Assembly (NCBI GenBank): GCA_040772045.1
Contig: JAXGYV010000001.1
Location: 69,577-133,576 of the forward strand
From: Thermoleophilia bacterium
Lineage (GTDB): Bacteria > Actinomycetota > Thermoleophilia > UBA2241
DNA: 64,000 nucleotides
Reading direction: 5' to 3'
Shown: piece by piece, positions 4,518 to 38,444 of the stretch
How the letters are laid out: each line of letters starts with the position of its first letter
Position numbering within the stretch: the stretch's first letter is position 1
Made by a program: the position numbers and the translations under genes
The notes under the pieces: model-generated
Told to the model about the DNA's origin: nothing
Database searches by the model: none
What the model saw: only the letters and a program-made list of their open reading frames with translations

Positions 4518-6264
4518 GCTCTCTATCGCGGATCTGGTGCTCATCGCGCAAGCGCGCCTCGAGCTCTCGCCTGGTCTCAACGTGATCACCGGAGAGACGG
4601 GTGCCGGCAAGACTCTCCTCGCTCAGGCCATCGGCCTCCTCATGGGGCAAAAGGGCGGGGAGGGTCTGGTCCGCGTTGGCGCCGAGCGAGCAACCGTGCA
4701 AGCCGTGTTCGCAGATGGCGAAGAGTTACTGGCTGTGGCACGTGAGTTGCCGGCGCGGGGCAGGGCGCGTGCCTATGTAAACGGCCTAGCCTCCTCAGCG
4801 GCAGTGGTCGAAGAGGTGGTGCGCGATCGGGTGGCGTTCTACGGACAACTCGAACACGCGCGTCTGCTCCACCTGGAGCGCCAGCTCGACTTGCTCGATG
4901 AAGCGGCGGGCGAGAACGTTGCGCGGCTGCTCGTCACTTACGGCGAAGCCTACGCCGGCGCGCGTGAACTGGAGCGCCGTCTGCAAGAGCTGCGGCGTGC
5001 GCAACAGGACCGCGAGCGCGAGCTCGATCTCCTCCGTTTCCAAATCGAGGAGATCGAGCGAGCGAAGGTAGAGCCCGGGGAGGATGCACGCGTCGCGCAG
5101 GAGCGCGACCGGCTGCGGCACGCGGGCAGGCTGCTGGAGCGTGTAGGCGGAGCGGTGGCGTTCCTCGCGGGAGAAACAGAGGCGAGCGGCCTGGACGGCC
5201 TGCGCGGGGCGCGCGGACTGGTTGCCGACGCGGCGTCATGGGACGCCGCGCTCGCGCCGCTCGGCGAGCGGCTAGACGGGCTGGTGGCCGAAGCAGAAGA
5301 TGTGGCATTCGCGCTCCAGGCCTACCTCGAGGAGATCGACGCCGACCCCGCCCATCGCGATCGCGTCGAGCTACGGCACGACGAGCTCACCGCGCTGCGG
5401 CGCAAGTACGGCGCCACGGCCGACGACGTGCTGGCGTACCTCGCGCGGGCGCGCACGCGGGCGGACGAGCTGGCGCGCGGGGGCGAGGAGCAGGATACGC
5501 TGCGCGAGCAGACCCGTGCGGCGTGGGAGGCCGCGGTGACCGCCGCGGCGCGGCTCACGGAAGCGCGGCGGAAGCACGCGCCGCGTTTCGCCGCCGCGGT
5601 GGCGCGCGAGCTGCGGGCGCTCAGTATGCCTCACGCACGCTTCGAGGTGGCGCTGAGCAGCCGTGGCGAGGGCGTGGCGGTGCTCGGCCCTCGCGGCGCC
5701 GACGAGGTGGAGTTCCTCTTCTCGGCTAACCCCGGTACGGCACTGCGCCCGCTGCGCGACACGGCCTCGGGGGGCGAGCTGTCACGAGCCATGCTCGCCC
5801 TCAAAAGCGTGGCTACGCTCACGGCCGACGTCGGTACACTGATCTTCGACGAGGTAGACACCGGCATCGGCGGTGTGACGGCCACCGGCCTGGGCGAACG
5901 GCTGGTGCGGCTAGCGAGCCGCACACAGATCGTGTGTATCACGCACCTGGCGCAGGTGGTGGCCTTCGCGGACCGTCACTTCGCCATCGCGAAGGTGAGC
6001 GATCCACAGGCCGCGACCACCGAGACCGTCGTGCGCCGGGTGGAGGGCGAGGAGCGGGTAGACGAGCTGTGCCGTATGCTGGGCGCCTCGGCGTCCGACC
6101 CGGCGGCGCGCGCGCACGCCGAGAGCCTGCTCGCGCGAGCGGCCGAGGCGCGCAAGGAGGAGGTGCGGGCCGGCTGTCGTCGGCTGGCGCGCGGCGGCTG
6201 TCTCGCCCCTTTGTGCGACGGGAGGGGCGTTCCCACATGCTATACTTGCGACCCGAAGTGGTAG
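4507..6264 (+). CDS. recN: DNA repair protein RecN
   Basis: MLAELSIADLVLI...GETGAGKT Walker A at N-terminus, long coiled coil, C-terminal SMC-like signature; start overlaps nadK end. Confidence 0.9.
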   Translation: MLAELSIADLVLIAQARLELSPGLNVITGETGAGKTLLAQAIGLLMGQKGGEGLVRVGAERATVQAVFADGEELLAVARELPARGRARAYVNGLASSAAVVEEVVRDRVAFYGQLEHARLLHLERQLDLLDEAAGENVARLLVTYGEAYAGARELERRLQELRRAQQDRERELDLLRFQIEEIERAKVEPGEDARVAQERDRLRHAGRLLERVGGAVAFLAGETEASGLDGLRGARGLVADAASWDAALAPLGERLDGLVAEAEDVAFALQAYLEEIDADPAHRDRVELRHDELTALRRKYGATADDVLAYLARARTRADELARGGEEQDTLREQTRAAWEAAVTAAARLTEARRKHAPRFAAAVARELRALSMPHARFEVALSSRGEGVAVLGPRGADEVEFLFSANPGTALRPLRDTASGGELSRAMLALKSVATLTADVGTLIFDEVDTGIGGVTATGLGERLVRLASRTQIVCITHLAQVVAFADRHFAIAKVSDPQAATTETVVRRVEGEERVDELCRMLGASASDPAARAHAESLLARAAEARKEEVRAGCRRLARGGCLAPLCDGRGVPTCYTCDPKW

Positions 6265-29093: not shown

Positions 29094-29816
29094 GTGAAGC
29101 GCCGACCGGATCCTGGAGAGCTTTCCCCACTCTTCCGCTTCGACCTGGAGGCCGCTCATGCGGCTGGTGTGTCCCCGCTGGTCGCGGGAGTCGACGAGGC
29201 TGGCCGGGGCGCCCTCGCGGGACCGCTAGTAGCCGCCGCCGTCGCTTTCGACTACGCGTGCTGGACGGCCGAGGACTACGCCGCGCTGGCCGGCCTCGAC
29301 GACTCCAAACGACTGCGGGCTGTAGAACGTGTGCAGCTCTTGGGAGAGATCATTCCTCGGGCGGCGCAGGTGACGGTGGTCAGCTGCGCCGCCGCCAGCA
29401 TCGACGAGCGTGGTCTGCACCGCTGCAATCTCCAGGCTCTCGGGGAGGCCCTCGTGGCGTTGCGACCCTCCCCGGTTGTGGTGCACGTCGACGGATTTGC
29501 CCTGCGGGAATGCCCGCTCGCGCATCGCCCGGTGGTGCGCGGCGATGCGCGCTCGGCGGCCGTGGCCGCGGCGTCAATCGTGGCTAAGGTGACGCGAGAC
29601 GCGGTCATGCGCGGGTTGCACGAAATTCACGCGGCATGGGGGTTCGCGACGCACGTAGGCTACGCGACGCCGGACCATCACCGGGCGATCCTGCAGTATG
29701 GCCTCTGCGCGCAGCATCGGCGCTCTTTCGCGAGCGTCGCCTATCGGCAGCTCGAATTGAAGTGGGCGGGCGACGGGGCGCAATCCGCCGAGCCAGTGCC
29801 CGACGCCATCTCCTGA
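29094..29816 (+). CDS. rnhB: Ribonuclease HII
   Basis: GVDEAGRGALAGPLV catalytic motif, DDSKRL. Confidence 0.9.
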   Translation: MKRRPDPGELSPLFRFDLEAAHAAGVSPLVAGVDEAGRGALAGPLVAAAVAFDYACWTAEDYAALAGLDDSKRLRAVERVQLLGEIIPRAAQVTVVSCAAASIDERGLHRCNLQALGEALVALRPSPVVVHVDGFALRECPLAHRPVVRGDARSAAVAAASIVAKVTRDAVMRGLHEIHAAWGFATHVGYATPDHHRAILQYGLCAQHRRSFASVAYRQLELKWAGDGAQSAEPVPDAIS

Positions 29817-29866
29817 GAGAAGCTTGCCCACTTTGCCCGCGGCGTCCGCCGCTGGGTACGCCGCCG

Positions 29867-29910
29867 GGCGCTGCGCGACGCGCTCTCAGGGGTGCGCGTC
29901 GCGCAGCGCC
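29867..29910. terminator. Perfect 17-bp inverted repeat (ggcgctgcgcgacgcgc / gcgcgtcgcgcagcgcc) with a 10-nt loop containing the aminotransferase stop codon; likely bidirectional terminator for the convergent rnhB and minus-strand operon
   Basis: Seen directly; left arm 29867-29883, loop 29884-29893, right arm 29894-29910. Confidence 0.55.
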
Positions 29911-30998
29911 GCCGATATGGCCGACAGCCCCTCGCGGAGCTCCGCGAGAGTGGGCCAACCATATCCCACGCGCATGTACCGTCGCGGTTGTTCGAACCAG
30001 TGGCCGGGGCCAACGTACGTGCCGTACTTATGGAGCAATACGCTGTAGAAAAGGTCCAGGTCGACCGGCACCTCAGGCTTGATGCGCGGGAAACAGACTA
30101 CGCCACCCTGTGGCTGGATCCACTCCATGAGATCCTCTGTCGCCATCCATTTGGCAACCACGGTGAGGGCTTCGGCGATGCGGTGCCGAATCTCGGGTAA
30201 CCACGTGGCCCGTTGTGAGAACACCTGGAAGGCGATCTCCTCGTCCACGACGCTGTTGCAGATGCCGATCTGCTCTTTGGCGGCGAGGAAGGTGGAGAGC
30301 AGCTCGCTGTCGGAGCAGACCGCCCACCCCATGCGGATACCCGGGATGCCATAGGTTTTGGAGAGCGACGAGACGCTGATGACGCGTTCGCTGAGAGTGG
30401 CCGCTACGGGGAGGCATGCTCCGTAGGTCATCTCCCTGTACGTTTCGTCTACCAGCAGCCGGCAGCCGGCGCGCTCGACGCCGCGTACCAGTGTCTCCAG
30501 CTCGGCGGGGGTCATCACTTGTCCGGTCGGGTTGTGCGGGACGGTGACGCTGACGCAACGCGTGGTAGGGCGGATCATGTGGAGCAGGCGCTCGACGTCC
30601 AACCGGAAGCCGTCTTCGAAGCGCAAGTCGTAGTACGTGCTGTCGACGCCGATGGCCCGCGGGACCTCGATGTTGGTGGCGTAGTTGGGCCGTACCACCA
30701 CCAGGTGATCGCCGGGTTCCAGGAGCGCCGTGGCGATAATGAAGAGAGCGTGGGCGGCCCCAGCGCATACCAGCACGTGGTCGGCGGTGATGCCGGCGCC
30801 GCTCTGCGCGGCGATCAGCTCGCGGAAGCTTGGGTGCCCCGCGTGATCGCCGTAGAACAGCACCAGGTTGGGGAGCTGCACGCCGATCTCCGCCAGAGAG
30901 CGATCGCGCACCGAACTCTCCGAGAGATTGAAGGTGATGGCGCCATATCCGAGCTGTTCGGGGGACTCTTCCTCCATCGGCATCCGTACGTACTTCAC
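29886..30998 (-). CDS. Class I/II PLP-dependent aminotransferase
   Basis: 370 aa; SLSKTYGIPGIRMGW PLP-lysine motif, fold-type I aminotransferase architecture; ATG overlaps the upstream ATPase stop (ATGA). Confidence 0.8.
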   Translation of the reverse strand: MKYVRMPMEEESPEQLGYGAITFNLSESSVRDRSLAEIGVQLPNLVLFYGDHAGHPSFRELIAAQSGAGITADHVLVCAGAAHALFIIATALLEPGDHLVVVRPNYATNIEVPRAIGVDSTYYDLRFEDGFRLDVERLLHMIRPTTRCVSVTVPHNPTGQVMTPAELETLVRGVERAGCRLLVDETYREMTYGACLPVAATLSERVISVSSLSKTYGIPGIRMGWAVCSDSELLSTFLAAKEQIGICNSVVDEEIAFQVFSQRATWLPEIRHRIAEALTVVAKWMATEDLMEWIQPQGGVVCFPRIKPEVPVDLDLFYSVLLHKYGTYVGPGHWFEQPRRYMRVGYGWPTLAELREGLSAISAALRDAHP

Positions 30999-33763
30999 CT
31001 TACGGCTCCTTTACGCTTGGGGTGGGGGGATGGCTGGCTGGCCGGTTCAAAGGAAACGTCCCGGCCGGCGAGCTCGACGCAGGCCACCGCGTCGCCGAGT
31101 TCCTCGCGGAGCATATCGCGGGTCCCGGGGTGACAAGTGAAGAGGAGCACCTGCTGATCGGGCGCCAGGGTGCCCAGTACGCGACAGAGTGCCCGTGCTC
31201 GCTGAGGGTCGAAGTTGACCAGCACCTCGTCCATGACCAGGGGCAGACGTGCCGCGCGGGCGCCGAACTCTTCGGCGAGGGCGAGGCGAACACAGAGGTA
31301 GAGCTGCTCTGCCGTACCGCGGCTCAGCTGAACGGTCGTCTTGCGGGCTCCATGATCGTCCACGACGGCAAGCTGTTGGGGGAGGCCTTCCTGCACGATC
31401 CGTACGTAACGACCCTGGGTGACGTGAGCGAACAGAGAAGAGGCGCGGGCCAAGACGCGCGGCTGATGGTGCTCGGTAAACGAGGCGAGAGTGCGTGAGA
31501 CGAGGGCACCGGCCAGGGTGAGCGCGCGCCACGAGTGCGCCAGCGTCCGAAGGTCTTGCGTTACGGCCTGTACAGCGGCGGCGGCCGCCGGGACATCCGC
31601 CGATGCTTCGATGTGTCGCCGGGCCGTCTCGGCGTCGCGGCAGCGCTTGGCCGCCGCCGCCAGCTGCTGGTCGGCCTCGCCGAGACTCGTGGCGAGGTGA
31701 TCCGCTCGGGTTTGCCACTCGCTCAGCCGGCCGGTGGCCAGCTCGGCTTGGGCGGCGGAGTCGCATCCCAATCGGCCCTCCACGACGGCGCGGGCTGCGG
31801 CGACGCGTCGCAGTGCTTCCTGGCGCCGCTCGACAGTCTCGTGGAGGGCGGACACGCGCGCCAGAAGCTGCTCGCCGCTGGGGGGCGCTGCCGTCCATAC
31901 TTGGTCGGCCTGCTGCAGCGCGCTGGTAGCTTGCTGCTCCCAAGCGCGGCGCGCGTTCTCCAGGGCACTGAGCTGTCCGTGCGCCTCGGCTACGGCGGCC
32001 AACTTGTCGCGTGCTGCTTCGGCGGCACGCAAGAAATCCAGGGCGCCGGCGGGTGAGAGCTGTTCCGGCAAGCCGGCGGCCGAACGATGTTCCTTCCACG
32101 CCGCCGCCGCCCGCGCGGCCGCGTCCACGGCCTGACGGTACGTCTCGTGCAGCGGAGCCGTCTCTTCGCGCCGGATGCGCAGCCGTTCGGCGCGCAGGTG
32201 GAGCTCGGTGGCCAGGCGGTCGTACTCGGCGCGTCGGGCGAGCGCATCGCGAAGAGCGGCATCGCGCTGCTCGACCTCGTGGGTTGGGGGCTCCGCGGGC
32301 AGCGAGAGACGCTCGCACGCGGCCGCTACGCGCTGCTCCAAGTCGCGGCACGCGCTGGGCGCGGGAGCGGTGCGCGTCCACTGCGTGGCGACGACGATCC
32401 CTCCCACCGTGCCCGCCGCGATCAGCAGCGTGCCGAGCAACGGGTCGCCGGACACGAGCCTCCAGACACCGAGCGCCACGATGAAGAGCGTCGGGATCAC
32501 CGTGGCGAGCGTGAGCGTCAGACCACCGCTCCCGCGACGTGCGGCGCGGGCCACGCGGAGGTCGCTGAGATCAGCGCGCAGTTGGGCGCAGAGACGGGTA
32601 TGCGCGCGCAGCTCGTGCTCGGGCGGGGGCTCCTCCGTCGGCATGGTGCGCTGGAACTCGGCGAGATCCTGCTCGCGCTGCCGGAGCTCGTCGCGGGCTC
32701 GGTCGAGGGCGATGGCGGCAGCCTGAGTCGCGCTGGCCGTCTCCTCCAACTGCTGTTGACAGGAGCGTATGGCCTCCCGGGCGGGGATGGAGGTATCGAG
32801 TGCCGCCAAGCGCTCCTCGGTCCAGGCCGGCCCGAGATCGGCCAGCGCGGCGTCGGCCTGTTCGCGCGCCACCGACAGCGAAGCGTGCAGGCGCGGTTGT
32901 CGTTCGAGGCGATCGCGCTGGAGCTCCAGGGTGCGCACCAGCTCGGTGAGCGACTCGACGGCGAGGGGTGGGAGGGGAGGAAGCGAGTCAGCGGCGGCTT
33001 GTGCCTCCACGAGTGTCTGCCATGGCGGCCAGAGCTCGAGGAGATCGGTGACGCGCCGCACCTCCTCGCGCTGCGCCTCGACCTGGCGCTGAAGCTCCTG
33101 GAGATCCTGCTCGGCGGCACGCTCCTCGTCTTGCCGGCGGGCGTACTCGGCGGCGAGACGCCGCGCGGTGGACAGATCGGCCTGTGCGCGGTCGTACGCC
33201 GCGAGTGCTGTGCGGAGCTTGTCTTGGCGCGCCGTTTTGCGGAAGATCTCGGCCGCCCGTTGCTCGGTGGCGGTGAGGGCGCGCCGCGCCGAAAGGCCGG
33301 CGCCGGTGAGCCCGGCGGAGAATATGCGTTCGGCGACGCCCTCATCGGACAGGCTGGAGAACGCCTGGAGCTCCGCGAGGCTGAAGGCGAAGATCGACTC
33401 GAAGAGCGCCTTATCCGCATTGCCGAGCATGCGGAGCAGGTCGCCGGGAGTGCCGGGTTCGCCGTCTCCATACGTAACGTGAGGAGGTGCGTTGCGGCGT
33501 CCGGCTTGGCGGTCCACGGTAAGCAGTCTGCCGTCACTCTGAAGCACCAGGCGCCCGCCGTGGCGCGCGCCCGTCGGCGCCTCGTAGACAGTCCCGCTCC
33601 GTCGGTCTTTGAAGCCGAAGAGCACGCCGCGGATGAAGGCGAGCAAGGTGCTCTTGCCCGCCTCGTTAGGGCCGTGCAGGACGGTGATGCCATCCGGCAG
33701 TTCCGGGCCGGCGTGGTCGCGGAATACGCCGAAGCCGTCGATCGACCAAGAGACGATCTTCAT
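30995..33763 (-). CDS. SbcC/YhaN-like AAA ATPase (Rad50/SMC-like, DNA repair/anti-DNA nuclease ATPase subunit)
   Basis: 922 aa; N-terminal VLHGPNEAGKSTLL Walker A, very long Ala/Arg/Glu coiled coil, C-terminal LPLVMDEVLVNFD Walker B/D-loop. Confidence 0.8.
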   Translation of the reverse strand: MKIVSWSIDGFGVFRDHAGPELPDGITVLHGPNEAGKSTLLAFIRGVLFGFKDRRSGTVYEAPTGARHGGRLVLQSDGRLLTVDRQAGRRNAPPHVTYGDGEPGTPGDLLRMLGNADKALFESIFAFSLAELQAFSSLSDEGVAERIFSAGLTGAGLSARRALTATEQRAAEIFRKTARQDKLRTALAAYDRAQADLSTARRLAAEYARRQDEERAAEQDLQELQRQVEAQREEVRRVTDLLELWPPWQTLVEAQAAADSLPPLPPLAVESLTELVRTLELQRDRLERQPRLHASLSVAREQADAALADLGPAWTEERLAALDTSIPAREAIRSCQQQLEETASATQAAAIALDRARDELRQREQDLAEFQRTMPTEEPPPEHELRAHTRLCAQLRADLSDLRVARAARRGSGGLTLTLATVIPTLFIVALGVWRLVSGDPLLGTLLIAAGTVGGIVVATQWTRTAPAPSACRDLEQRVAAACERLSLPAEPPTHEVEQRDAALRDALARRAEYDRLATELHLRAERLRIRREETAPLHETYRQAVDAAARAAAAWKEHRSAAGLPEQLSPAGALDFLRAAEAARDKLAAVAEAHGQLSALENARRAWEQQATSALQQADQVWTAAPPSGEQLLARVSALHETVERRQEALRRVAAARAVVEGRLGCDSAAQAELATGRLSEWQTRADHLATSLGEADQQLAAAAKRCRDAETARRHIEASADVPAAAAAVQAVTQDLRTLAHSWRALTLAGALVSRTLASFTEHHQPRVLARASSLFAHVTQGRYVRIVQEGLPQQLAVVDDHGARKTTVQLSRGTAEQLYLCVRLALAEEFGARAARLPLVMDEVLVNFDPQRARALCRVLGTLAPDQQVLLFTCHPGTRDMLREELGDAVACVELAGRDVSFEPASQPSPHPKRKGAVR

Positions 33764-33791
33764 CCGCCGACCCTCACCTGTCCGCCGGGTG

Positions 33792-35102
33792 TCATTGCTC
33801 GTCCTCTTCGGTGAGGAGATCGAGGGCGATGGTCTCGGCGGCCGCCATCAGAGGGACGAGGTCTTCGTCCGGCAGCTGCCGGAGGGCCTCTGGGAGCCTT
33901 CTGAGCGGTAACTCACGATTGAGCTCGTCGAGCAGATGGCGCAGTGCGATCGGGTCGGCGAGCAGGGCGTCGGCCTCGGCGACCACCTGCGCCGCGAAGT
34001 CGTGTCGTTCGCGGATCTGGTCGCGGTCGATCTGCGGCCGCGTTGCGTCGGAGAGGGCGTCCCACCAGAGGAAGGGGAGCTGCGCCACGCTGCGTTCGCG
34101 CAGCTCCTCGAGAAGGCTGGGCAGAACGCCCGGGCGAGCTAGGAGGCTGTGCGCAGGCCCACGACCGTCCACGGTGGCGCGCACCACCAGCGGTAGGCCG
34201 CCCTCCTCGGCGCGCCGCCTCTCGGCGGCTTGGAGGAGCTCGTCGAGGACGTCGCTGATGTCGGCACAGGTCGACACGTCGGCGTGCAGTGCTGCGAAGC
34301 GCAGTGCGTCGCACGCGTGGAAGCGTACGTTGGCCACGCGGCCATCCGCGCACTCCACCACTAGGGCGCCTTTGGCGTCGGTCTCGGAGGGCTTCATACT
34401 CCGCCCCTGCAGGTTCCCTGGGTAAGCGATCACGGGAGTGCCGTCGCCGAGCGTCTGCCGTTTGTGGATGTGACCGAGGGCCCAGTAGTCGATGGGTGCT
34501 TGACGGAGGTCGGCGAGGGAACAGGGGCTGTAGGGGAGATGTTCACTGCTCGATATGGCGCTACAGTGCAGGAGTCCGATCCTGAGCGCGGCGGAGTGAT
34601 CTGCGGCCGGCGAGGCGGCAGCGGCGAGGTGCCGCGGGCGAAAGCGCAGGGCGAGGTTCTCGCTGGTCTCGCGGCGCGCGTAACTGATGCCGGTCACGGT
34701 GGCGAGACACCGGCCGTCTCTCTCCACGGACACCGTCTGCACGTCGGTGTGGTCCAGAATGGTGACGCCCGCCGGCCAATGGATGATGGCGGACCAGCCC
34801 TCTTCCACCGGATCGTGGTTGCCGTGCACGACGAACGTCTGGATGCCGCGCTCGCTCAGGCGCTCGAGGCCGCGGAGAAAGCGAAGTTGGGCGCGGACAC
34901 CGCGGTCGACTCCATCGTAAATATCGCCGGCGAGGAGCAGAAAGGCGGCGTCCTCCGCGATGCAGAGCTCGACGAGGTGGTCCCAGGCGTGCAGCGACGC
35001 CTCGATCAGAGCCTCCCTGACCTGCCCAGTGGCAGTGGAGATGCCCTCGAGTGGTGTGTCCAGGTGCAAATCGGCGGCATGGACAAAGCAGAAGCTGCTC
35101 AC
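33792..35102 (-). CDS. SbcD/Mre11-like calcineurin-type metallophosphoesterase (YhaO-like nuclease subunit)
   Basis: FVHAADLHLD motif I, LLAGDIYD, VVHGNHD phosphoesterase motifs. Confidence 0.8.
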   Translation of the reverse strand: MSSFCFVHAADLHLDTPLEGISTATGQVREALIEASLHAWDHLVELCIAEDAAFLLLAGDIYDGVDRGVRAQLRFLRGLERLSERGIQTFVVHGNHDPVEEGWSAIIHWPAGVTILDHTDVQTVSVERDGRCLATVTGISYARRETSENLALRFRPRHLAAAASPAADHSAALRIGLLHCSAISSSEHLPYSPCSLADLRQAPIDYWALGHIHKRQTLGDGTPVIAYPGNLQGRSMKPSETDAKGALVVECADGRVANVRFHACDALRFAALHADVSTCADISDVLDELLQAAERRRAEEGGLPLVVRATVDGRGPAHSLLARPGVLPSLLEELRERSVAQLPFLWWDALSDATRPQIDRDQIRERHDFAAQVVAEADALLADPIALRHLLDELNRELPLRRLPEALRQLPDEDLVPLMAAAETIALDLLTEEDEQ

Positions 35103-35173
35103 AGACGCATCATACCGTCGTCTGGGGACGGAGGCGCGCGAAAGCGGCTGTCTCGTGACTACGTCACACAGGG

Positions 35174-35674
35174 ATGCCGTATGTCACCATGTACCGCTGG
35201 GCGCCCTCCCACTACGCTGCTGAACACAGGTGGGAGGAGCCGTCGCGGTTCCTCCCGCGGTTTCTCTCGTCGACAGGCGGACCAAAGGGGGCGGATATTT
35301 CGACGGCGGCGCAGCAGTACGGGCGAGCGGCAGAGCGTGCCGCTGCCGACTACCTTTCGGCACGCGGGTATCGGGTTCTCGCGAGGAACCAGCGTGTGGG
35401 GCGCGGCGAGCTGGACATCATCGTTCGCCGTGGCTCCATACTTGCGTTCGTCGAGGTTAAAGCCAGGCACGGCGAACGTTGTGGCACTCCCGAGGAGGCT
35501 GTCTCGGCCGCTAAACGCGCGCAGGTCGCGCGGTTGGCGGAGCTGTGGCTCGCGTCGCGGCCATGGGCTCTCGCCGGGGTGACCGAGGTACGTCTGGACA
35601 TCGTCGCGGTGTCCGTGCGCGGCTCCTCGGCACAGATCCGCCATCTGCCGGGCGCCTTCTCAGGCGGCTGGTAG
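35174..35674 (+). CDS. yraN: YraN/UPF0102 family endonuclease-like protein
   Basis: Core YLxxxGYxVLARNxR...GELDII...VEVK motifs; roughly 40-aa N-terminal extension is uncertain (true start may be downstream). Confidence 0.75.
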   Translation: MPYVTMYRWAPSHYAAEHRWEEPSRFLPRFLSSTGGPKGADISTAAQQYGRAAERAAADYLSARGYRVLARNQRVGRGELDIIVRRGSILAFVEVKARHGERCGTPEEAVSAAKRAQVARLAELWLASRPWALAGVTEVRLDIVAVSVRGSSAQIRHLPGAFSGGW

Positions 35675-35688
35675 GCAGAGGCTTCGCC

Positions 35689-37218
35689 GTGCTCGCACGT
35701 GTCCGGAGCGAGGCCCTCAGCGGGCTAGAAGGCCATGCGGTAGAGGTAGAGGTCGATGTTGCCACGGCGGCGCCGGCGTTCACCATCGTCGGCCTGCCGG
35801 ATGTCGCCGTACAAGAGAGCCGCGAGCGCGTGCGGTCGGCGATCGTCAATAGTGGGTTTCGGTTCCCCTCGCGACGCATCACCGTGAACCTCGCGCCGGC
35901 CGACCTGCGCAAAGAGGGTCCTTCCTTCGACTTACCTATCGCGCTGGCCTTCCTGGCCGCGACGGGTCAGGCGGCGTGGCCCGAGCACGCACCCGCCGCT
36001 CTGGGCGAACTGGCGTTGGACGGCACGCTGCGGCCCGTCACCGGCGCTCTCGCCGTAGCCGAGAGCTTGGGGCGTCGCGGTGTGCGCGCACTTCTGCTCC
36101 CGGCGGCCAACGCACGAGAGGCGGCGCTGGTCCAGGGGCTGCAGGTCATCGGCGCGGGCACACTGGAGGAGGCGGCACGGGCCATGGCCGACGGCGCACC
36201 CGTCGTAGCCCATCCCCTGTCGGCGGAAGAGCTGCTCGGCGTGCGGGCCGCGTACACGGCCGACATGGCCGACGTTCAGGGTCAAGCGCACGCCAAGCGG
36301 GCGCTGGAGGTAGCCGCGGCCGGGGCGCACGCCGTGCTTATGGTCGGTCCACCGGGGTCGGGAAAGACCATGCTGGCGCGCCGCCTGCCGTCCATCATGC
36401 CCCCACTCTCGGTGGACGAAGCGGTGGCCATCACGCGCGTCTACAGCGTGGCCGGGCTGCTGCCGGCCGACCAGCCACTGGTGGTGGCGCGGCCATTCCG
36501 AGCTCCGCACCACACGATCTCGAGCAGCGGGTTGGTGGGTGGAGGAAGCTCGCCCCGCCCTGGGGAAGTAAGCCTTGCGCACCTAGGGGTTCTCTTCTTG
36601 GACGAGTTCCCCGAGTTTCGCCTCGCCGCCCTCGAGGGTCTGCGGCAGCCCCTCGAAGACGGCGAGGTGACCATCTCGCGAGCGCTCACCTCGGTAACGT
36701 TTCCGGCGCGCATCATGCTCGTGGCCGCCATGAACCCATGCCCGTGCGGCTTCCTGGGCGATCGCGAGCGCGAGTGCACGTGCGCGGAACATCGTATTCG
36801 GCAGTACACGAGCAAACTGAGCGGCCCCCTGCTCGATCGCATCGACTTGCGCATCGAGGTGGCGCGCGTCTCGCGGCTTGCCCGGCGACAGTCTGCTCCG
36901 CGGGAAGAGCCTTCCGCCGCCATCGCCGCCAGAACGGCCGCGGCGCGTCGCCGCCAGCTCGAGCGGCTGTGTCAGAGCGGCCGGTACGCCAACGCGCACA
37001 TGACGCCACGGCAGGTACGGCAGCTCTGCCGCCTGCGGCCCGACGCGGCCGACATGCTCGACCAAGCGTACGAGCGCCTGCGGCTCAGCGCACGAGCGTG
37101 CGACCGGATCGTCAAAGTAGCGCAGACCATCGCCGATCTCGAAGGCACGCCGCATATCCACGCCGCGCACGTGGCGGAGAGTCTGTCGTATCGGCTGCGG
37201 CCACCGGGGCTCCCGTGA
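35689..37218 (+). CDS. comM: YifB/ComM family Mg-chelatase-like AAA+ ATPase
   Basis: GTG start (VLARVRSEALSG), Lon-like N-domain, MVGPPGSGKT Walker A, C-terminal Mg-chelatase subunit ChlI domain. Confidence 0.9.
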   Translation: MLARVRSEALSGLEGHAVEVEVDVATAAPAFTIVGLPDVAVQESRERVRSAIVNSGFRFPSRRITVNLAPADLRKEGPSFDLPIALAFLAATGQAAWPEHAPAALGELALDGTLRPVTGALAVAESLGRRGVRALLLPAANAREAALVQGLQVIGAGTLEEAARAMADGAPVVAHPLSAEELLGVRAAYTADMADVQGQAHAKRALEVAAAGAHAVLMVGPPGSGKTMLARRLPSIMPPLSVDEAVAITRVYSVAGLLPADQPLVVARPFRAPHHTISSSGLVGGGSSPRPGEVSLAHLGVLFLDEFPEFRLAALEGLRQPLEDGEVTISRALTSVTFPARIMLVAAMNPCPCGFLGDRERECTCAEHRIRQYTSKLSGPLLDRIDLRIEVARVSRLARRQSAPREEPSAAIAARTAAARRRQLERLCQSGRYANAHMTPRQVRQLCRLRPDAADMLDQAYERLRLSARACDRIVKVAQTIADLEGTPHIHAAHVAESLSYRLRPPGLP

Positions 37219-38444
37219 ACGGCGCCGTCCGCTCCCAGCAACGGCTTACCTGTCGGTGGCTGGCGGAGGTGGGCACGTGGAATCCCGGAGCGCTGCGCAG
37301 GTTGCAACAGCGGTATGGGGGATTGGATGCGCTTCTGGAGCATTCGCGAGAGGACCTCGCCGCGGAGCTCTCATCCGCGCGGCGAGCCGTGCCGGCCGCA
37401 GTACCCGGCTTGCCTGCCGAAGAAGAGCGCTGGACGGAGGCTGGCGCATATGCTGCCACGCTCGCCGCCGCCGCGCGAGGTCCAGTGGTGGCAAGCGTCG
37501 GCAGGCCGGTGGTTACATGGGTCGACGATCGCTACCCGGCTAGGCTCCGGCACTTGAGCGATCCTCCGCCGGCGCTCTTTCTGGCTGGAGCGGCGGTTTG
37601 GGAGGCGCTTACCGTCTGCACGGCCGTGCCGGTGGTGGCCGTGGTAGGTACGCGCGGGCCGACGGCCTATGGGCGAGACATGGCGCGCGCCATCGCCTCC
37701 GGTTTGACAAAGGCGGGAGTTCTGGTGGTCAGCGGTCTGGCCATGGGCATCGACGCCGAGGCGCACAGCGCGGCGCTGACGGTCGCGGCAGGCACTTGCG
37801 CGGTAGGCACGGCGGCGGTGCTGGGATGCGGCGTCGATGTCGTGTATCCCCGCGTCAATCGTCGCCTGTTCGCTCGCGTACACGCCGCCGGTTTGCTGCT
37901 CAGCGAGTTCGTGTGGGGGGCGGGGGCTCGGGCTTGGCGTTTTCCGGCCAGGAACCGCATCATCGCCGGGTTGGCCGACGCCGTGGTCGTGGTAGAAGGA
38001 GGGGCACGCAGCGGAGCGCTTTCGACGGCCGAGTTCTGCAACGATCTGGGGCGCGAACCGCTGGCGGTGCCGGGCGAAGCAGGACGGCGGCTGTCGGCCG
38101 GCCCGCATCGTCTCCTGCGCGAGGGCCGCGCCGGTCTCTGTGAGTCGGCGGCCGATGTCCTCGCGGCACTGGGCCTGCCGCAGAGCGCCTCCCCACGGCA
38201 GGCCCAACTGTGCCTCGCGACAGGCGTGTCCAGCGGCGACGCGGCGGCCGTACTCTCGGCTCTGGATGGTGGCGAGCTGCGCGTGGACGAGCTCGCCATC
38301 GCCGCCAGTCTGCGTGTGGTGGACTGCCTGGCGACGCTCGCCGAATTGGAGCTCGCGGGTCTGGTGAGCCCCTGCTCGGGAGGCAGGTATCGCTTGGTGC
38401 GCGGAGACGATCCCGGAGTCGTGGAAACGCCGCGAGCGGGCTAA
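37215..38444 (+). CDS. dprA: DNA-processing protein DprA (Smf)
   Basis: GTG overlapping the comM stop; Rossmann-fold core VVSGLAMGIDAEAH...NRIIAGLADAVVVVEG; the ORF-track 822-aa ORF is a frame fusion. Confidence 0.85.
   Translation: MNGAVRSQQRLTCRWLAEVGTWNPGALRRLQQRYGGLDALLEHSREDLAAELSSARRAVPAAVPGLPAEEERWTEAGAYAATLAAAARGPVVASVGRPVVTWVDDRYPARLRHLSDPPPALFLAGAAVWEALTVCTAVPVVAVVGTRGPTAYGRDMARAIASGLTKAGVLVVSGLAMGIDAEAHSAALTVAAGTCAVGTAAVLGCGVDVVYPRVNRRLFARVHAAGLLLSEFVWGAGARAWRFPARNRIIAGLADAVVVVEGGARSGALSTAEFCNDLGREPLAVPGEAGRRLSAGPHRLLREGRAGLCESAADVLAALGLPQSASPRQAQLCLATGVSSGDAAAVLSALDGGELRVDELAIAASLRVVDCLATLAELELAGLVSPCSGGRYRLVRGDDPGVVETPRAG

Follow-up and report, generated by a model that had tools for sequence, protein, structure and literature searches.

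The window, which is the whole stretch of 64,000 nucleotides that was analysed, carries three consecutive minus-strand open reading frames between rnhB and yraN-comM-dprA, and the coordinates put forward for them in the earlier note proved to be exact, with lengths of 436, 922 and 370 amino acids. All three have a high GC3, as in real genes (window GC 68%), and Pfam matches bear out the assignment of the first to SbcD-like phosphoesterases, of the second to YhaN-type SMC-like ATPases, and of the third to PLP aminotransferases of class I/II. The first two genes are separated by a gap of 28 bp and form a pair that is divergent from yraN-comM-dprA. In the near-identical strains L171/L172 (98–99%), the geometry of the trio is the same as in the window. 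The features of the locus are the following:

35103..35125, minus strand: conserved promoter-like element TCCGTC...CGGTATGATGC, directly upstream of the phosphoesterase start
33792..35102, minus strand: metallophosphoesterase (SbcD/Mre11-like, SbcF/YhaO-type), 436 aa, GTG start
30995..33763, minus strand: YhaN/SbcE-type SMC-like ATPase, 922 aa
32381..32533, minus strand: hydrophobic hairpin in the middle of the ATPase (aa 411–461) in place of a zinc hook, two TM-like segments in a Kyte-Doolittle scan
30995..30998, minus strand: GTGA start/stop overlap of the ATPase and aminotransferase genes, read from the sequence
29886..30998, minus strand: PLP aminotransferase (class I/II, fold type I, uncharacterised subfamily), 370 aa, GTG start
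29817..29885: 69-bp convergent intergenic region from the aminotransferase stop to the rnhB stop, at the end of the minus-strand unit
29094-29816, plus strand: rnhB, matching Pfam RNase_HII

The phosphoesterase matches Pfam Metallophos (PF00149) with 41 bits and possesses all five motifs I–V (DLHLD 11–15, GDIYD 59–63, GNHD 94–97, LLHC 177–180, and GHIH 210–213), and its scores with the NCBIfam models sbcd TIGR00619 (51.1 bits, cut-off 77.65) and NF041754 (32.7, cut-off 750) lie below the respective thresholds. It is 52% identical to the phosphoesterases at the related loci L001, L085, and L087. The head of the ATPase matches the YhaN domain AAA_27 (PF13514) over residues 1–200 with 76.3 bits (cut-off 22), as well as AAA_23, and the protein displays a Walker A motif (GPNEAGKST, 31–39), a signature-like LSRGTAEQ (813–820), a Walker B motif (LVMDEV, 842–847), and FTCH at 875–878. 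No CxxC, as is found in the zinc hook of SbcC/Rad50, occurs anywhere in its 922 residues. Among the matches listed, a hydrophobic segment occurs in all 120 ATPase homologues, at around 0.47 of the protein length, and a central CxxC in one of the 120; homologues are named 'uncharacterized protein YhaN' by JGI. SbcE from B. subtilis has been described as having a 'unique central domain' whose first half is hydrophobic (PMC2811018), and residues 411–461 of the window ATPase are likewise hydrophobic and devoid of CxxC. The ATPase gene lies directly downstream of an SbcD-like phosphoesterase gene in the window, L001, L085–L087, and L168–L170.

In its first two genes the locus resembles SbcF-SbcE (YhaO-YhaN) of B. 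subtilis, where an SbcD-like phosphoesterase is also followed by an SMC-like ATPase (PMC2811018), and the two ATPases share the AAA_27 head, long helical arms, the hydrophobic central domain, and the lack of a CxxC hook. In Bacillus, yhaM occupies the third position, as the earlier note had correctly stated (PMC2811018), and codes for an exonuclease, whereas the third gene of the window codes for a PLP aminotransferase that is dispensable in relatives. The window also differs from B. subtilis in its host, a high-GC Thermoleophilia-like actinobacterium, in that a search upstream revealed no LexA-type box, and in the divergent orientation of the pair relative to yraN-comM-dprA. With E. coli SbcCD and Mre11-Rad50 the pair shares the two-gene combination of a nuclease and an ABC/SMC-type ATPase, motifs I–V, Walker A, Walker B, and the signature, but the window ATPase is without the apex zinc-hook CxxC, and the SbcD/SbcC equivalog models either score far under their cut-offs or find no match.

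The aminotransferase matches Pfam Aminotran_1_2 (PF00155) with 163.6 bits and its PLP motifs are intact (HNPTG 155, DETY 184, SLSK(214)TYG, and RVGY 343). Its best match in the PDB is 3OP7, an uncharacterised aminotransferase from Streptococcus suis (phmmer E 3.5e-46), to which SLSK214, D184, N156, and R343 align, as expected for a class I/II enzyme of fold type I. This PRK07324-type protein of unknown function is the best relative both in structure and in sequence, with the catalytic lysine and the PLP motifs aligned, but the window enzyme reaches 209 bits with the PRK07324 model against a cut-off of 476 and so is not its equivalog. The top named NCBIfam families are the PLP-dependent arginine-derived cyclases GntC, VioD, and OrfR, and PDB entries 8FFT and 4M2J are the second and third PDB matches. 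The scores with GntC (217.8 bits, cut-off 415) and VioD (206.6 bits, cut-off 390.9) are, like that with PRK07324, about half of the cut-offs, and neither equivalog threshold is reached; furthermore, no hydroxylase or NRPS is found among the annotated genes around the trio, and orthologues of the aminotransferase are spread through primary-metabolism-like contexts. PatB (99 against a cut-off of 340), CobD (93 against 291), HisC (PRK05166, 84 against 540), and DapC (the DapC-type 2O0R reached only E 7e-22) were discarded, and the ordinary hisC or dapC gene that the earlier note had considered is not what this HMM classification points to. Judged by these scores, the aminotransferase belongs to an uncharacterised subfamily nearest to PRK07324/3OP7 and the GntC/VioD cyclases, under all curated cut-offs. 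It is 77% identical to its counterpart in L001, where the pair is present, and 73% identical to that in L005, where the pair is absent, with length and PLP motifs unchanged. By this measure it evolves slowly and evenly with or without the pair, and neither sequence acceleration nor domain gain nor motif loss was detected in the trio lineage. Across the species distances at which the aminotransferase is 73–77% identical, the ATPase is 39–40% identical.

At the junction of the ATPase and aminotransferase genes, the overlap of 4 nt between stop and start that had been reported is real, but it reads GTGA and not ATGA, because the aminotransferase starts with GTG. A Shine-Dalgarno sequence AAGGAG is located at about 31006–31011, inside the ATPase gene and 7 nt upstream of this GTG. 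The position of the start is backed by the N-terminus MKYVRM, which is aligned from its very first residue in 80 loci with homologues, and by L005, in which an ATG occupies the place of the GTG of the window. In L001 the two genes are separated by a gap of 36 nt containing GAAGGAGG and therefore the overlap itself is not conserved. A crude scan of the 64-kb window detected at least 9 candidate start/stop overlaps of 4 nt, and at the same locus rimM/trmD and comM/dprA also overlap by 4 nt; the overlap of the ATPase and aminotransferase genes does not exceed what chance would produce in this genome.

In the window and in L001, L085, and L087, 5–6 nt separate CGGTATGATGC from the start codon of the phosphoesterase gene, and a near-identical TCCGTC(C/G)C precedes this motif, reading TCCGTCGC in L087 and TCCGTCCC in the other three loci. 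This is the only conserved promoter-like element at the trio. As its -10-like TATGAT is just 7–8 nt away from the start codon, the operon transcript is probably leaderless and would begin at the phosphoesterase gene. No Cheo/LexA box was found by consensus search in 35103–35285, so SOS control is unsupported with that consensus, and the mycobacterial RecA-independent promoter motif was not seen by eye upstream of the operon. The upstream intergenic region folds no better than its shuffles (z -1.6), and no Rfam family reaches its gathering score across the whole window. No canonical T-tract terminator was found in the 69-bp region behind the aminotransferase (29817..29885). The separating promoter or terminator between the ATPase and aminotransferase genes, which the earlier note had named as evidence against coupling, was not encountered in the scan for sigma-70 and terminator consensus sequences, a scan that returned nothing meaningful in this high-GC DNA and whose sigma-70 consensus captures actinobacterial promoters poorly. 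Co-transcription therefore remains likely, and from its sequence features the trio is probably co-transcribed.

The same poor capture of actinobacterial promoters favors an alternative in which the aminotransferase is transcribed mainly from a promoter that lies within the 3' end of the ATPase gene and the overlap reflects genome compaction without co-regulation. The strong Shine-Dalgarno sequence belonging to the window aminotransferase is in line with this, as are the pair-less loci L005/L006, in which the aminotransferase gene is preceded by a -10-like TATGCT of its own at a distance of about 30 nt, by a leader, and by a Shine-Dalgarno sequence. (An origin of the -10-like GGTATGCTGC at L005/L006 as a deletion remnant of the phosphoesterase promoter is not claimed, as the match is a short one and is spaced differently from the upstream GCCTCC.) However, neither the final 100 nt or so of the window ATPase gene nor the gap of 36 nt in L001 shows an evident -10 of the TAnnnT type, and the sole conserved promoter-like element precedes the phosphoesterase gene, which leaves independent expression as an improbable reading, with perhaps a slim chance of being correct. 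Read-through from the phosphoesterase promoter is the probable source of aminotransferase mRNA, because the gene sits immediately 3' of the ATPase gene, overlaps it by GTGA, and has its own Shine-Dalgarno sequence.

The interval between rnhB and yraN-comM-dprA was compared among relatives, whose flanking housekeeping proteins are 64–75% identical over 838 columns and which stand at similar distances. The sample at this position is small: the trio is represented by two independent lineages, the pair alone by two loci, the aminotransferase alone by two loci, and the empty state by one. The trio occurs in the window and the near-identical L171/L172 and in L001/L002, that is, in one clade only; the pair without aminotransferase is present in L085 and L087, where the ATPase stop lies 10–17 bp from the convergent rnhB; the aminotransferase without the pair is present in L005 and L006; and neither unit is present in L088. 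The last locus was the only informative one from a comM query in metagenome contigs, which sampled the rnhB-comM interval without bias and returned mostly distant relatives of about 50% identity. In an unrooted tree of flanking genes, in which bootstrap support of deep nodes is 17–46%, the locus states follow clades, and one parsimonious reading is that the common ancestor already had the trio, in which case the arrangement would be old; separate gains are the alternative to such an ancestral trio with losses. At other positions, the aminotransferase was found in 80 further species-level genomes (57–69% identical), spanning Thermoleophilia, Chloroflexia, Synergistales, Holophagaceae, and Rhizobiales, and in none of these 80 loci was a YhaN N-terminal domain (HMM) or a phosphoesterase (tblastn) detected within 10 kb. 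Its neighbors there vary by clade, being a Hydrolase_4 protein, a polar amino-acid ABC transporter with a GerE regulator, or an MFS transporter. Likewise, the YhaO/YhaN pair elsewhere is followed by no gene (L168, L170), by a DUF429 gene (L086), or by a HAD hydrolase gene (L169). When conservation of the three-gene arrangement was checked in this way, it did not hold up, as the same site may also have only the pair, only the aminotransferase, or neither, and 80 of 80 other aminotransferase loci are without the pair.

Variable presence of the pair, together with the rapid divergence of the ATPase (39–40% identity against 73–83% for neighboring genes) and weak PADLOC matches to mad3, LmuB, and GajA, could be taken to mean that the pair is a mobile anti-phage system of the Lamassu, Gabija, or PARIS kind that was inserted beside a resident aminotransferase. 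These matches, however, span only the Walker A region of about 50 residues with 34 bits or less and E values of 1e-9 or worse, PADLOC gave no match for the phosphoesterase or the aminotransferase and no full-length defence-system match, and the ATPase has the YhaN-specific AAA_27 domain and an SbcE-type hydrophobic central domain. Moreover, the pair is embedded in syntenic core genes and has a promoter that is conserved across clades, and it is flanked neither by an integrase nor by repeats nor by a shift in composition. A mobile defence system is accordingly very unlikely. Of equally little promise is the recruitment of a metabolic enzyme to a DNA-damage or anti-foreign-DNA module raised in the earlier note, in which the PLP enzyme would be a working third component translationally coupled for stoichiometry and might modify a nucleobase or small-molecule signal or serve in the response to damage or foreign DNA: the 4-nt overlap, the tight linkage in L001/L002 and the near-identical strains, and the lack of a terminator or consensus promoter between the genes speak for it, but the pair without aminotransferase (L085, L087, L086, L168–L170), the aminotransferase without the pair (L005, L006, and the 80 other genomes), the unconserved overlap, the aminotransferase sequence without acceleration, domain gain, or motif loss, and the lack of a PADLOC match or a LexA/Cheo box upstream speak against it, and the phyletic pattern has already largely refuted it.

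With high confidence, the arrangement is best explained as a lineage-specific juxtaposition of two independent units, which now probably form a single transcription unit. Since relatives carry the pair or the aminotransferase alone at the same spot, this looks like ordinary operon packing, and the coincidental packing that had been offered as the other possibility gains support from an adjacency not kept in relatives. The first unit would be an SbcF/SbcE (YhaO/YhaN) complex of a phosphoesterase and an SMC-like ATPase with a hydrophobic hairpin apex instead of a zinc hook and, by homology to B. subtilis, would process DNA ends in double-strand break repair and transformation; a physical complex of SbcE with SbcF and a role in these processes are known only for B. 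subtilis (PMC2811018). The second unit would be a stand-alone PLP enzyme of amino-acid metabolism from a widely distributed, uncharacterised subfamily, and would owe its transcription to read-through from the phosphoesterase promoter, which is conserved and probably leaderless. Because the tight trio persisted on both sides of the split between the window and L001, which are 75% identical in flanking housekeeping proteins, there may be some selective benefit of co-expression in the trio lineage. The aminotransferase may also have a biochemical link to DNA metabolism. According to the phyletic data, a link between the pair and the aminotransferase is not obligatory, and it may be a local, facultative one. 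That the aminotransferase of the window/L001 lineage, co-expressed with the pair beside yraN-comM-dprA, has acquired a lineage-specific role in DNA damage or uptake is highly improbable; if true, this PLP enzyme would be moonlighting in a regulon for repair or competence.

The Mre11/Rad50-like pair and the PLP enzyme tightly coupled to it are thus no new repair or defence module, and this candidate can be cleared. What emerges in addition is an aminotransferase subfamily that is strongly conserved across several phyla and still without a known substrate. Pairs of the SbcE/SbcF type with a hook-less hydrophobic apex are hereby documented in Thermoleophilia-like actinobacteria, beside the comM-dprA transformation genes and under a conserved promoter that, from its sequence, is probably leaderless.

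Three consecutive genes were found on the minus strand of the window (GC content about 68%) by ORF listing and translation, at exactly the coordinates reported in the earlier note, and are referred to together as the trio:

33792-35102, minus strand, phosphoesterase of the SbcF/YhaO type (436 aa; Pfam Metallophos, 41 bits)
30995-33763, minus strand, ATPase of the SbcE/YhaN type (922 aa; Pfam AAA_27, the YhaN head domain, 76 bits, residues 1-200; also AAA_23)
29886-30998, minus strand, class I/II PLP aminotransferase (370 aa; Pfam Aminotran_1_2, 164 bits)

Each gene has a GC3 of about 0.81-0.83, the level marking real genes in the window. The ATPase and aminotransferase genes had been described as overlapping in ATGA; a 4-nt overlap is indeed present, but the sequence reads GTGA and the aminotransferase starts with GTG (...GCC GTA AGG TGA in the ATPase frame, GTG AAG TAC... 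in the second frame), with AAGGAG 7 nt upstream. Conservation secures this start position: in 80 homologous loci the MKYVRM N-terminus is aligned from its first residue, and the same codon position is occupied by ATG in L005 and GTG in L001 (L-numbers denote loci of other genomes used for comparison). By itself the overlap carries little information, since 4-nt overlaps are common in the window, where rimM/trmD and comM/dprA likewise overlap by 4 nt; in L001 and L002 the two genes are separated by a 36-nt gap. At least nine candidate start/stop overlaps of this length occur within the 64 kb, indicating very compact gene packing.

The trio forms a minus-strand island inside a plus-strand block of core genes. 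One flank ("upstream") comprises ftsY, ffh, rpsP, a KH-domain gene, rimM, trmD, rplS, lepB and rnhB, and the other, divergent from the phosphoesterase gene, comprises yraN, comM, dprA, xerC and a sigma factor gene. The immediate neighbors are:

29094-29816, rnhB, convergent with the aminotransferase gene
about 35285-35659, yraN, divergent from the phosphoesterase gene

The arrangement was tested from both sides, with homologues of the aminotransferase and of the ATPase. The trio recurs at this position in L001 and L002 (aminotransferase 77% identical). In L005 (73%) and L006 (67%), the interval between rnhB and yraN/comM contains the aminotransferase but no phosphoesterase-ATPase pair. In the other 80 aminotransferase loci (57-69% identical), neither the YhaN head domain (HMM, six-frame ORFs) nor the phosphoesterase (tblastn) was detected within 10 kb. 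Conversely, L085 and L087 carry the pair at the same position without the aminotransferase, the ATPase stop codon lying 10-17 bp from convergent rnhB. Elsewhere, the pair of L086 is at another site and is followed by DUF429, a HAD hydrolase gene lies downstream of that of L169, and in L168 and L170 the pair is not followed by any co-directional gene. In L088 (comM 72%), rnhB, yraN and comM follow one another with nothing in between. The interval from rnhB to yraN (29817-35284 in the window; also in L001, L005, L006, L085, L087 and L088) varies in its content, although the synteny around it is conserved.

It is evident from L001/L002, L085/L087, L005/L006 and L088 that four states exist at one chromosomal site, namely pair plus aminotransferase, pair only, aminotransferase only, and empty. 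According to the flanking housekeeping proteins, the genomes stand at comparable distances (64-75%, 838 ungapped columns), and the states follow clades of the housekeeping tree (window and L001; L005 and L006; L085, L087 and L088). Among the Thermoleophilia sequences, the locus-resident aminotransferases group in a single clade. Either differential loss from an ancestral trio or separate gains could account for the pattern, the tree having no root and weak support in its deep branches; under either history, each unit persists without the other.

The best NCBIfam match of the aminotransferase was GntC (218 bits, cut-off 415), followed by PRK07324 (209 bits, cut-off 476) and VioD (207 bits, cut-off 391). 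Models for HisC, DapC-type enzymes, PatB and CobD scored far below these and were rejected. The closest solved relative is an uncharacterised aminotransferase from S. suis (3OP7), followed by GntC (8FFT) and OrfR (4M2J). With the Schiff-base lysine and the remaining PLP motifs intact, the protein is an active-looking fold-type I PLP enzyme of an unassigned subfamily, and the gene cannot be recognised as any particular biosynthetic gene. Orthologues are unusually conserved, with 57-73% identity across Thermoleophilia, Chloroflexia, Synergistales, Holophagaceae and Rhizobiales (L003-L084), and their neighbors vary with the clade. In many Thermoleophilia an alpha/beta hydrolase (Hydrolase_4) lies downstream, often at 3-4 bp; in Rhizobiales the neighbors are a polar amino-acid ABC transporter and a GerE-type regulator, and in Mesorhizobium an MFS transporter. 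Such a pattern suggests an enzyme under strong constraint that has spread horizontally. When the window is compared with L001, identity is 77% for the aminotransferase, 73% for comM, 83% for ffh, 52% for the phosphoesterase and 40% for the ATPase. The aminotransferase shows neither acceleration nor remodelling in the trio lineage.

All five calcineurin-type motifs are present in the phosphoesterase, which is SbcD-like yet scores under the curated SbcD cut-offs. The ATPase has Walker A, signature-like, Walker B and H-loop-like motifs, no CxxC in its 922 residues, and the following segments at the apex, where Rad50/SbcC has its zinc hook:

32381-32533, minus strand, two TM-like hydrophobic segments of the ATPase (residues 411-461)

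A hydrophobic segment at about 0.47 of the length was found in 120 of the 120 listed ATPase homologues (central CxxC in only one), and the segments may form a membrane-inserting hairpin. SbcE (YhaN) of B. subtilis, whose partner is SbcF (YhaO) and whose gene lies upstream of yhaM, is defined by a "unique central domain" that is hydrophobic in its first half and has no CxxC (PMC2811018), and the hydrophobic apex matches this central domain, reported to be insoluble. Because of this shared central domain, the pair belongs to the SbcF/SbcE family and not to SbcCD proper. PADLOC returned only Walker-A-level matches, all for the ATPase.

Upstream of the phosphoesterase gene, a promoter-like element is conserved in four diverged loci:

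35103-35125, minus strand, TCCGTC...CGGTATGATGC, ending 5-6 nt before the phosphoesterase start codon (in relatives: L001, about 4843-4872; L085 and L087, 6715-6726)

As its -10-like TATGAT is so near the start codon, a leaderless transcript is suggested. No promoter-like or terminator-like site was found between the ATPase and aminotransferase genes, and therefore read-through co-transcription of the two appears likeliest; in L005 and L006, a separate -10-like element and an approximately 30-nt leader precede the aminotransferase gene. No Cheo/LexA box was found in the promoter region upstream of the phosphoesterase gene. The divergent phosphoesterase-yraN intergenic region contains a hairpin with a 13-bp stem (35230-35258, plus strand) and a GTGACgtaGTCAC palindrome (35155-35167) not clearly conserved in relatives; the region folds no better than shuffles (z -1.6), and Rfam gave no family at gathering score over the whole window (1-64000).

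As pair and aminotransferase are each found without the other, the coincidental operon packing considered in the earlier note is supported, and the locus is an SbcF/SbcE DNA-end-processing pair to which an independent PLP enzyme was appended in one lineage. The alternative offered there, recruitment of the aminotransferase to a DNA-damage or anti-foreign-DNA module, retains only a small residual probability. The pair divergently adjoins yraN-comM-dprA (33792-38444), as it also does in L001, L085 and L087. These genes are tied to natural transformation, and a competence role has been reported for B. subtilis SbcE; the adjacency could be meaningful or merely shared synteny. By homology, the pair would act in DSB repair and transformation, and the only new element is a further representative of a family already known, from an actinobacterial class that has been little studied.
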